Virus record (IMG/VR): IMGVR_UViG_641736224_000028
Location: 1-15,412 of that record
Length of the DNA: 15,412 bases
Source: a virus
Taxonomy: Duplodnaviria; Heunggongvirae; Uroviricota; Caudoviricetes
Strand: one strand, 5' to 3'
Each line of letters starts with the position of its first letter. The stretch's first letter is position 1. Made by a program: the position numbers. This document shows positions 3,001-6,000 of the stretch, piece after piece.

Positions 3001-6000
3001 TGCATAGGAATATCCTTTTTCGTACTTTCAGTACGCATTATGGTTGAACTGAAAGTTTTTGCAAGTGCTTTAGTATCGTACTCATGGTTCAGAATGAAAA
3101 AGTGCGCAAAGAATTCGCCCAGCGGCTAGCGCAAGCCTGTAAAGAAGCTGGTCTTGATGAACATGGTAGGGGAATGGCTATAGCCCGTGCCCTTTCTCTT
3201 TCGTCCAAAGGCGTTAGCAAATGGTTTAATGCTGAGTCTTTACCGCGTCAGGAAAAAATGAATGCGCTTGCGAAATTTCTAAACGTTGATGTTGTTTGGC
3301 TTCAGCACGGCACTTCGTTAAATGGAGCGAATGATGAAGATACTCTTTCATTTGTTGGCAAATTAAAAAAAGGGTTAGTGCGCGTGGTTGGTGAGGCAAT
3401 TCTTGGTGTTGATGGTGCCATCGAGATGACCGAAGAGCGCGATGGGTGGCTCAAAATTTATAGCGATGATCCAGATGCCTTTGGTCTTCGTGTGAAAGGA
3501 GACAGCATGTGGCCCAGAATAAAATCAGGAGAATATGTACTCATTGAGCCTAACACCAAAGTATTCCCGGGTGATGAGGTGTTTGTCAGAACCGTTGAAG
3601 GACACAACATGATTAAGGTTCTTGGCTATGACAGAGATGGAGAATACCAATTTACAAGCATTAACCAGGATCACAGGCCTATAACGTTGCCTTATCATCA
3701 AGTAGCAAAGGTGGAGTATGTAGCTGGTATTCTGAAGCAATCTCGCCATCTGGATGACATCGAGGCAAGGGAGTGGCTGAAAAGTTCGTGACTTCATCGT
3801 CACATAGCTGGTAACCAGTGGCCTGAAGAGACGTTTGGGTAAGGAGGATAGATGGCGTTCAATGACCTTGAATATCAAGCAGTAAAAAAAGAAGTTCACC
3901 AATTCATTGAAAGCATAAGGCCGCCTGAACATATCCGCAATGAACTGGATATTGTTTATAGCATCAATGACCAAACGATAGATATCGGCGAACAGCGCCC
4001 CGTGTGGCAGGGCAATCCAGGTGAAACAAACATCCTGCCATCAGCAAGAATCAAGTACATACGTTCTCTGGATAGATGGAAAATCTATTGGATGCGGAAG
4101 GATATGAAATGGCATCAGTACAGTACTGAACTTTCGCTGACTGATGCGCTTGAGCTTGTGCGTGCTAACCCGGATTGCTGCTTCTTCGGATGAGTGAAGA
4201 GACGTTTGGATGATGGATGGTCGCAGAGATGCGGCCTGATTCTAAAATAGGATATAAAAAATGAGAATACTAGGTGTTAGAGCGGCGCCCAAAGTTACAT
4301 CTTTTGTTGTATATTGCACTAATGAGTCTGCACTCAAATGTGTTGATGTTATTAAAATACCTTCGACCTTAGACACACCAGAAAAATTAAAGTATGTGAG
4401 AAATAACATCCTCGACATTCTTAATTTATATAATGTTGAATTAGCTGCCATACGCGTTACTGAATCAAACTCTGATAATCTTAGCATTGACCGCCTTTAT
4501 ATAGAAGCTGTTATTCAAGAAGCATTTTCAAGCAGTGATGTAAGAAAATATTACACTATTAGAAAATCTGGCATGAAATCATCATTGAACCTAACAGAGA
4601 TCGAGTATAAAGAAATATTGAAGTCACACCGCAATATAAATGGAATCGATAATTCTGGTTTTACAACTGAAACAAATGAAGCTGTTTTGGCTGCACTATC
4701 TGCGGAGGTAAGGGGATGCTAACTCCATACAAAAGAGCTGATGTAGAATTCGAATGGATTAGTGATCTAGAAGAACAGGGTTGTTTTTCAAAAGTATATC
4801 TGGCTCATGACAGACACCTAGCTCATGACTTGGTGATTAAAGAAATAGAAAAAAAAGAAAACACTAACCACGACGACTACTTTAATGAAGCAAGGCTTCT
4901 CTATAAACATGCACATCCAAATATTGTGCAAGTTCAGTATGCTGCTCAATGTGAGAGCAATATCTATATAGCCATGCCATTTTATCATAATGGTTCGCTA
5001 AACCAATTAATGAAAAAAAATAATCTTACAAGCAGGGAGATAATACGGTATTCCATTCAATTTTTAAGTGGACTTTATCATATACACTCAAAAGGTCTTA
5101 TGCATTTTGATATAAAACCTAATAACATTATGATATCAAACAGAAATGAGGCCATGCTATCTGACTTTGGATTATCTCAGTTAGTCAATGAGGAATCGAG
5201 AGCTGCGCCTGAGTTTGGATATCATTTTCATGTGCCACCGGAATATTTTTCTTTATCAACAAATGATTATAATTTCACATATGACATATATCAGGCAGGA
5301 TTAACCATATATAGAATGTGTGTTGGACATGATAATTTTGAAAGAGAAAGATCTGCATTTAGCACGATTGAACAACTCAGAGAGTCGATAATTAATGGCT
5401 GCTATCCATTAAAAGAGTATCCTCCCCATATACATAAAAAATTAATAACAATAGTGAACAAATGCATTCATGTAGATCCAAATGAAAGATATCAATCCGT
5501 ACTAGATGTACTAAACGATCTCTCAGCTATAAGTGATGGCGTTCTTGACTGGCGTCTACAGATGACGAAACCAACTAACGGCACATGCGAATGGCAAAAA
5601 AAGTCTGGGGACGCTATACTGTCTATAGTTTTTGACGCAGAAAATTCGTCTACTACTGGTTTTCGTTTATACGATGATGGGCGGAAAAGGCGTGCTACGA
5701 ACTTAACAATATCCTCAGGATGTACCCCTACAAAACTGTATAGGTTATTAAAGGATAACTGATCATGAAAAAGCGCGAGGAAGTAAGCAAGCTGCCTCGC
5801 AGACGTGATGCAGCATTAGCGGTTCCCTACAAAAAAGATGAGTTCATAAGCCCTTCTGATGACAAAAAATTTTCAAAGGCGAAAAGTTTTACATCTACAT
5901 CTCTAAAAGATAAATACTTTAAAATCTAGCCCGGCCTCAGCGCCGGGTTTTCTTTGCCTCACGTTCGCCCACCTAAAAAACATAACCAATTGTATTTATT

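Follow-up and report, generated by a model that had tools for sequence, protein, structure and literature searches.

The 933W-type prophage kinase Stk and its constant upstream neighbour L0083 as a putative two-gene defence cassette

Introduction

What does a Hanks-type protein kinase do on the repressor transcript of a prophage, and does it act alone? We met this question in a 15,412-nucleotide stretch of a Caudoviricetes record (IMGVR_UViG_641736224_000028, positions 1 to 15,412; hereafter the window), in which the kinase gene stk follows a small gene homologous to L0083 of bacteriophage 933W. The kinase itself, a textbook case of abortive infection encoded by a prophage, adds nothing new. 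What remains of interest is its strictly conserved partner L0083, a C-terminal domain that is private to the family, and Tyr169 of the activation segment. In our reading, Stk is quite probably the killing enzyme of a prophage abortive-infection module, in which L0083 and Stk are made together as a complex and serve as a portable defence cassette. We base this on the identity with 933W Stk, the operon layout, the published exclusion of phage, the intact catalytic residues, the pairing with L0083, the defence context of the relatives and the private C-terminal domain. If the two-gene view is true, it redefines a family that is probably filed by automated tools under single-gene kinase defences.

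Identity and reported function of the kinase

The two genes of the putative cassette are as follows.

4261..4722, + strand: L0083 homologue, 153 aa, directly upstream of stk (PHROG 3875 'RuvC-like', 8e-91)
4716..5762, + strand: stk, Hanks-type protein kinase of 348 aa with an ATG start (open reading frame and translation), identical to 933W Stk

The open reading frame (ORF) at 4716-5762 is the stk gene of a bacteriophage 933W-type Shiga-toxin prophage, and the kinase gene itself is already known. An alignment against 933W Stk, proposed as a check in an earlier sequence-only reading of the locus, returned the very same gene, with 100% nucleotide identity to AF125520.1 10104-11150 over 1047 nt. 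Altogether 39 records match the ORF at a nucleotide identity of at least 99%; besides AF125520.1 these are 38 records at 99-100%, mostly Shiga-toxin phages, many of which carry the label 'stk: serine/threonine kinase'. At the protein level, the exact-match cluster P0001 (933W Stk, AAD25427.1) agrees with the window kinase at 100% identity and 100% coverage, and PHROG 2361 'serine-threonine kinase' matches residues 10-347 with 3e-142.

The primary description of 933W Stk is that of Friedman et al. 2011 (Mol Microbiol 82:567, PMID 21985444), and papers citing it present Stk as a prophage-expressed tyrosine kinase that is activated by HK97 infection to cause abortive infection. Two of these papers report that Stk shows hardly any activity, or none, as long as a lysogen is uninfected, and that infection by HK97 turns it on (PMC3681748; PMC3564112). 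The same sources state that stk is cotranscribed with cI in the pRM operon and that Stk activity aborts the superinfecting HK97 (PMC3564112), and that cellular proteins become tyrosine-phosphorylated after HK97 infection (PMC3681748).

Pairing of L0083 with Stk

L0083 appears to be unstudied, and our literature searches for a named two-gene kinase system returned nothing relevant. In the window, L0083 and stk overlap by 7 nt (ATGCTAA), with a GGAGG 7 nt ahead of the stk ATG. We then asked how general this arrangement is. Conservation of kinase residues was counted in 80 non-redundant species sequences. The best match to the L0083 profile (E 1e-35 to 1e-74) was located directly upstream of the kinase, on the same strand, in 94/94 kinase loci from the 80 species, and the stop of L0083 falls between -8 and +5 nt relative to the kinase start in 80/80 species loci. 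In the reverse search, which started from L0083 in IMG/VR, an intact kinase follows in 65 of 74 loci; 5 further loci carry a kinase split across reading frames, and 4 contigs end no more than 101 nt past L0083. Among the loci with room for a kinase, the result was thus positive in 70/70. The pairwise distances of L0083 and Stk also correlate, with r = 0.82. Because of this two-way adjacency, the tight spacing, the co-divergence and the variability of all other neighbours, the conserved mobile unit is, as far as the sequences go, a two-gene cassette of L0083 and Stk, in which L0083 would be the obligate upstream partner.

The family is spread widely. A protein search with Stk found 549 relatives, relatives turned up in 226 genomes when one genome per species was scanned, and 225/5426 complete E. 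coli genomes contain the cassette. The hosts include Gamma-, Beta- and Alphaproteobacteria, Bacteroidota, a cyanobacterium and an Ignavibacteria metagenome-assembled genome. An L0083 homologue of 152-155 aa directly precedes the kinase in four unlike settings: in the immunity regions of Proteus prophages; in Pseudomonas (L006-L008, 1-4680), beside a retron-like gene pair of reverse transcriptase and PRTase-CE/wHTH and an Abi_2 gene, with an integrase on the other side; in Elizabethkingia, on an element with LlaJI restriction-modification and ArdA; and in Acinetobacter, where the cassette is inserted between prophage tail genes. The Pseudomonas region looks like a compact defence island. The flanking ORFs (n=120) represent 119 different Pfam families, the commonest being integrases, transposases and S24 repressors, and no third conserved neighbour was found among them. 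Judged from these sequences, the cassette is a portable unit that moves between prophages and defence islands.

Could the kinase nevertheless be a self-contained, single-gene defence, like staphylococcal Stk2 or PD-T4-6, that senses its trigger through the C-terminal domain, with L0083 merely linked to it? PADLOC does place the core closest to the single-gene PD-T4-6 models (E 1e-37) and to MAD6, the papers cited above speak of Stk only, and a family-private, fast-evolving C-terminal domain is what one expects of a sensor. However, mere linkage would not survive cross-phylum transfer, whereas L0083 and the kinase remain adjacent in 94/94 and 70/70 loci, overlap or lie no more than 5 nt apart in 80 species and diverge together, while the other neighbours vary. 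Therefore, we consider a single-gene system unlikely.

The layout of the pair, a small upstream gene translationally coupled to a larger enzyme gene, is the classic type II toxin-antitoxin layout, and it was found in 80/80 loci. It is distinctly improbable, though, that the pair is mainly an addiction module, with Stk as toxin and L0083 as antitoxin, which stabilises prophages and islands and excludes phage only as a side effect. The residence of the cassette on mobile elements with integrases and transposases would suit such a module, and so would the silence of Stk in uninfected cells described in PMC3681748. On the other hand, Pfam scans of L0083 and its relatives found no helix-turn-helix (HTH), ribbon-helix-helix or AbrB domain, nor any other DNA-binding antitoxin domain, an explicit exclusion phenotype is published, and in 933W the cI promoter drives the pair, in place of an autoregulated one. 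Within the operon, promoter-like sites were no commoner than in shuffled sequence, with no sign of a separate cassette promoter, which fits the published cotranscription of the kinase with cI (PMC3564112). Addiction and abortive infection are compatible in any case, and to that extent this explanation overlaps our own.

Several E. coli viral contigs have a split stk. The window contains an A8 run at 4849-4856, in stk codons 45-47, and a 1-nt deletion at this run was found in one contig. Over the 1669-nt cassette, contig L107 differs from the window by a single 1-nt gap as the sole difference; contigs L114 and L124 have the same break, with the kinase match beginning at profile position 46, and contig L097 has a 1-nt insertion. 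Sequence clusters count 330 members for the 220-aa C-terminal product (P0013, from M129) and 579 for intact Stk. The split genes could be real inactivation, phase variation or homopolymer sequencing error.

Catalytic site of Stk

The kinase part of the protein contains the following elements.

4776..5531, + strand: kinase catalytic core, residues 21-272
4767..4796, + strand: degenerate glycine-rich loop LEEQGCFSKV, residues 18-27, with G22, S25 and V27 invariant in a 117-sequence alignment
4839..4841, + strand: beta3 lysine K42 (VIKE), present in 80/80 species; its alphaC partner E58 (nt 4887-4889) shows no variation either
5103..5126, + strand: catalytic loop HFDIKPNN, residues 130-137, non-RD and of Ser/Thr type (D-x-K-x-x-N)
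5163..5243, + strand: activation segment from DFG (150-152) to PPE (174-176), with Tyr169

Pfam Pkinase (PF00069) matches Stk residues 21-260 with 158.8 bits (E 2.2e-46), above the gathering score, and this score together with K42, E58, D132, N137 and D150 places Stk in the Hanks-type superfamily. The sequence-only reading had proposed a non-RD Hanks-type kinase on the strength of HFDIKPNN, DFG, PPE and the VIKE lysine, and each motif stands where it had been placed. HFD occupies residues 130-132, with the catalytic D132 present in 80/80 species; equally invariant are K42, E58, H130, K134, P135, N137, D150, F151, P175, E176, D190 (alphaF) and R258. Position 131 is Phe in 77/80 species and Arg in none, so HRD never occurs, and for this reason the non-RD state would be ancestral to the Stk family. 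Because all catalytic residues are intact, Stk looks like a catalytically competent kinase, not a pseudokinase. The Arg that ties the majority of kinases to phosphorylation of the activation loop is missing here, and the earlier suggestion that Stk is regulated by other means is consistent with the infection-dependent activity described in PMC3681748 and PMC3564112.

The glycine loop, read earlier as a degenerate EQGCFSKV, is degenerate indeed. Of the canonical GxGxxG, 933W Stk (E-Q-G-C-F-S) retains only the central Gly22, the first Gly position being Glu20 and the third Ser25. Across the species, the loop columns are G19 in 77/80 (Glu in 933W), G22 in 80/80, N24 in 78/80 (Phe in 933W) and S25 in 80/80, which gives the family consensus I-G-x-E-G-K-N-S-x-V (GxxGxNS). 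On this alignment the loop is unusual family-wide, and the 933W clade has additionally lost the first glycine of the family loop.

Tyr169 is invariant (80/80 species) and lies at APE-7, counting back from the APE glutamate. This position holds the 'GT' threonine in Ser/Thr kinases (PKA T201) and a proline in conventional tyrosine kinases (Src FPIKWTAPE). By position counting and comparison with PKA and Src, we take Tyr169 to stand at the 'GT' threonine position. Tyr169 would then be a candidate determinant of the substrate specificity of Stk, and its place, which normally separates Ser/Thr from Tyr kinases, makes it a lead on that specificity. The conventional tyrosine-kinase signatures (HRDLAARN or HRDLRAAN, and Pro at APE-7) are absent, the loop being HFDIKPNN and APE-7 being Tyr169. 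Since tyrosine phosphorylation has been reported experimentally (PMC3681748) and these signatures are missing, Stk would act as a kinase of Tyr or dual specificity while standing outside the conventional tyrosine-kinase family. Its Pfam matches are kinase-fold families only, with no P-loop family among them, and Stk does not show the Walker A/B P-loop ATPase fold of the BY-kinases (Wzc/Etk type), from which PMC3681748 also separates it.

We modelled full-length Stk with AlphaFold2 from the 117-sequence alignment. The model reached a predicted local distance difference test score (pLDDT) of 89.6 and a predicted template modelling score (pTM) of 0.90, and the activation segment alone was weak (pLDDT 61-65).

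C-terminal domain of Stk

5532..5759, + strand: family-specific C-terminal domain, residues 273-348, with W279 and W293 nearly invariant

An extension of about 80 residues behind the kinase core had been noticed earlier, together with the suggestion that it might be a sensing or targeting domain. The core ends near residue 272, and about 76-88 residues lie beyond it. In the AlphaFold2 model they fold into four antiparallel strands (290-297, 300-307, 312-319, 324-326), and a helix (338-347) comes last; residues 291-348 average a pLDDT of about 95 in the full-length model, and when the domain was modelled alone its fold was unchanged (pLDDT 87.2). Given these confident models, the extension is real and folded and no disordered tail, and the high pTM implies that in the predicted structure it packs in a fixed position against the kinase. 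The domain is present in 93/94 family loci. Of the top 120 relatives, 117 are at least 330 aa and 101 are 340-349 aa long, and this near-uniform full length makes the domain a family trait.

The domain seems to be found in the Stk family only. Its profile gave just 86 matches against 1.84 billion representative proteins, and the informative ones were all C-termini of 340-350 aa kinases or N-terminally truncated fragments of such kinases; to judge from these matches, no other architecture carries it among the 1.84 billion representatives. There was no Pfam match. In the structural comparison that the sequence-only reading had called for, Foldseek of the predicted structure against viral models gave nothing at E<=1e-3, and the domain has no convincing structural relative. 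With a mean pairwise distance of 0.75, against 0.50 for the core, the domain is the fastest-diverging part of Stk. A domain that is family-private, fast-diverging, without convincing structural relative and present in 93 of the 94 loci is a plausible sensing, targeting, recognition or partner-binding surface; the data fit such a role and are no proof of it. The co-variation of L0083 with the C-terminal domain and with the core (partial correlations 0.45 and 0.50) does not discriminate between the two.

L0083 and its likeness to RuvC

PHROGs labels the L0083 family 'RuvC-like Holliday junction resolvase', and some genome annotations also assign it to the RuvC family. The register given by hmmscan and hhalign places RILGVRAAPK of L0083 on IILGIDPGSR of RuvC and LAAIR on FAIE, with the N-terminal 65 residues in register, and Pfam RuvC matches 15/29 L0083 relatives, all sub-threshold, with a best E of 1.8e-4. 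In that weak register, the invariant R7 and R65 occupy the places of the RuvC catalytic D7 and E66, and RuvC D141 may have its counterpart in the invariant E140 of a C-terminal 'EAxLAAL' helix, again by a weak alignment. L0083 thus shows neither the PF02075 gathering score nor the catalytic acids (E. coli D7, E66, D138/H, D141) of a RuvC resolvase. It is probably not a nuclease of RuvC type, and we infer an RNase-H-like fold in which the chemistry of RuvC has been lost, for a protein that may serve as a binding or regulatory subunit.

Proposed mechanism and trigger

How could the two proteins work together? L0083 and Stk would be made together and act as a complex. L0083, with a RuvC/RNase-H-like fold whose metal-binding acids are presumably lost, could act as regulator or sensor, either keeping Stk inactive or relaying the phage trigger, and the fast-evolving C-terminal domain of Stk could be the surface that reads L0083 or the trigger, so that L0083, this domain or both would receive the phage signal. 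Once released, Stk would phosphorylate many host proteins, leading to growth arrest or death before the invading phage finishes its cycle. In many other bacteria, too, this cassette could function as a portable means of defence.

More tentatively, we suggest that this is an obligate, widely transferred two-protein defence system, uncatalogued as such, in which a catalytically dead, RuvC-like L0083 is the sensor or brake of a non-RD kinase with a private C-terminal domain, and which may sense phage recombination functions or intermediates. The thought of recombination comes from the resemblance of L0083 to a recombination-junction enzyme. The HK97 gene needed for Stk activation is reportedly orf41, and our literature searches for HK97 gp41/orf41 as the Stk trigger returned nothing relevant. 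In the HK97 record AF069529, erf stands between genes 40 and 42; it encodes a single-strand annealing protein (PF04404, E 2e-44). It is speculative, but a recombination-related trigger would suit a RuvC-like sensor. The same record, at 2176-2781 (L169), names the products of gene 40 and of erf alike 'Gp40', and by gene order erf should be 41; this numbering matters if orf41 is indeed the trigger of Stk.

The prophage in the window carries Bet/Exo rather than Erf. Within 10 kb of the cassette in 78 viral loci, we counted 3 Erf-type recombinases, 26 Bet and 9 RecT. Erf is unlikely to be a universal trigger, as an Erf-type protein is encoded nearby in 3/78 cassette-bearing viral loci. If Erf were a general trigger, cassette-bearing phages should avoid Erf-type recombinases; the counts of 3 Erf against 26 Bet and 9 RecT are at most a weak hint of this.

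A number of points weigh against the proposed two-protein defence complex. The Pfam RuvC match of L0083 itself is sub-threshold (PF02075, 14.2 bits against a cutoff of 22.2), its hhalign comparison with an unverified E. coli RuvC sequence is weak (E 0.056), and the L0083 profile gave chance-level matches only against Protein Data Bank sequences. On the side of the kinase, the Ser/Thr-type loop and the absence of Tyr-kinase signatures mean that the reported tyrosine specificity cannot be explained from the sequence. PADLOC and NCBIfam have no L0083 model, and the two-gene view therefore has no independent support from curated resources. Finally, if cloned stk without L0083 sufficed for exclusion, L0083 would be dispensable, at least for HK97.

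Operon layout and neighbouring genes

The operon, which forms the lysogenic transcript, reads, on the plus strand, cI, a DUF3024 gene, the L0083 homologue, stk, the L0081 homologue and a terminator. O, cII and cro lie on the minus strand ahead of cI in the window; beyond the terminator follow N, a gene with an Nmad5 domain, gam/bet/exo, Ea22-like genes and the integrase.

3084..3791, + strand: cI repressor, first gene of the operon (HTH_3 and Peptidase_S24), with pM directly upstream in the 933W annotation
3852..4193, + strand: L0084 homologue with DUF3024 (PF11225, 1.2e-30; PADLOC single-gene defence candidate PDC-S43, 4e-41), between cI and the cassette
5765..5929, + strand: L0081 homologue, a basic, lysine-rich ORF of 54 aa (PHROG 4063, 2.5e-39), last gene of the operon
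5928..5959, + strand: intrinsic terminator (also given as 5928-5949) ending the cI-stk transcript, an 8-bp stem, 6 of its pairs GC, and then a T-run (tM in AF125520.1)
6803-7486, + strand: ORF of 227 aa with an Nmad5 domain (nucleotide modification associated domain 5; PF18757, 6e-71)
14126-15412: integrase

The operon shared by stk and cI raises a further possibility, namely that Stk serves prophage regulation or the physiology or virulence of enterohaemorrhagic E. coli, for instance by phosphorylating regulators of host or phage and so tuning the lysis-lysogeny switch, much as the KKP kinase-phosphatase module does for Pf phage; in Pseudomonas, one known prophage kinase module governs lysogeny as well as defence (PMC11341870). 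However, members of the Stk family are often met outside prophages, where no repressor is encoded close by. In addition, PMC3681748 states that the formation of attaching and effacing lesions was unaffected in a strain without stk, and that Stk is unlikely to be the source of the E. coli phosphotyrosine proteome. We therefore regard a regulatory or virulence role as highly improbable, and keep to abortive infection as the probable function of the cassette.

The other genes of the operon do not travel with the cassette in the same way. The DUF3024 gene accompanies it in 31/78 viral loci (933W-like and Proteus prophages), that is, in enterobacterial prophages only and not elsewhere, and could represent a defence gene in its own right, carried on the transcript of the repressor. 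A clearly similar L0081-like peptide, ending in ...KYFK(I/L), follows the kinase in Proteus prophages, and no such peptide was found downstream of the kinase in the Pseudomonas and Elizabethkingia loci. We rejected L0081 as a third component of the cassette, as it is conserved only among enterobacterial prophages.

The window has the opposite orientation to the 933W record and is 99.4% identical to it over window positions 2303-6852, whereas the other flanks differ: the stretches 1-2302, 6853-7525 and 11532-15412 show no alignment with 933W. In the replication protein O (PF04492), too, the type differs from that of 933W, and the best whole-window matches are the phages phi330 and YYZ-2008, with 70% coverage at 99.2% identity. 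Because of the stretches without 933W alignment and the different O type, the window is best read as the early and immunity region of a mosaic 933W-type (Stx-type) prophage, not of 933W itself. The Nmad5 ORF just past N shows no alignment with 933W, which has L0079 at this place, and it constitutes a mosaic replacement within the early left operon.

Relation to described kinases and defence systems

The closest comparison is 933W Stk, which is the same gene at the same operon position downstream of cI, with no difference in the kinase itself. Staphylococcal Stk2, described by Depardieu and colleagues in 2016, is reportedly a Hanks-type kinase that is inactive until it is triggered by a protein of the infecting phage; it then modifies a broad set of host proteins by phosphorylation, and the infection is aborted. 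On that description, the two share the principle of a phage-activated abortive-infection Hanks kinase, but Stk2 is a single-gene system of Firmicutes, whereas the 933W family has L0083 upstream and a C-terminal domain of its own.

Rex is a membrane ion-channel system. Lambda RexAB resembles the 933W arrangement in that accessory genes on a lambdoid repressor transcript abort a heterologous phage, a comparison that PMC3564112 also draws, but its proteins and mechanism are unrelated to Stk. HipBA likewise has a small upstream gene translationally coupled to a kinase toxin; however, HipA is no Hanks kinase, and HipB is an HTH repressor, unlike L0083. With RuvC, L0083 shares the N-terminal register described above and differs in the failing Pfam match and in the arginines at the catalytic D7 and E66 positions.

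Among defence models, MAD6 of MADS, the methylation-associated defence system, is the best PADLOC match of Stk (6.7e-50), through the generic kinase core only, and also the best NCBIfam match. Nevertheless, Stk scores 122 bits against the curated cutoff of 460, the models span 612-659 positions, and there are no other MADS genes nearby; the NCBIfam cutoffs of PknB_PASTA (122 against 450) and PglW of BREX (45 against 990) are likewise not reached. The Stk core also matches PD-T4-6 (PADLOC PDLC04039-04064, E 1e-37 to 1e-15), under which automated tools may label Stk. These matches span the core only (about residues 21-276) and are no better than that of the generic Pfam Pkinase (2e-46), and PD-T4-6 is single-gene by definition, whereas the 933W family is strictly two-gene.

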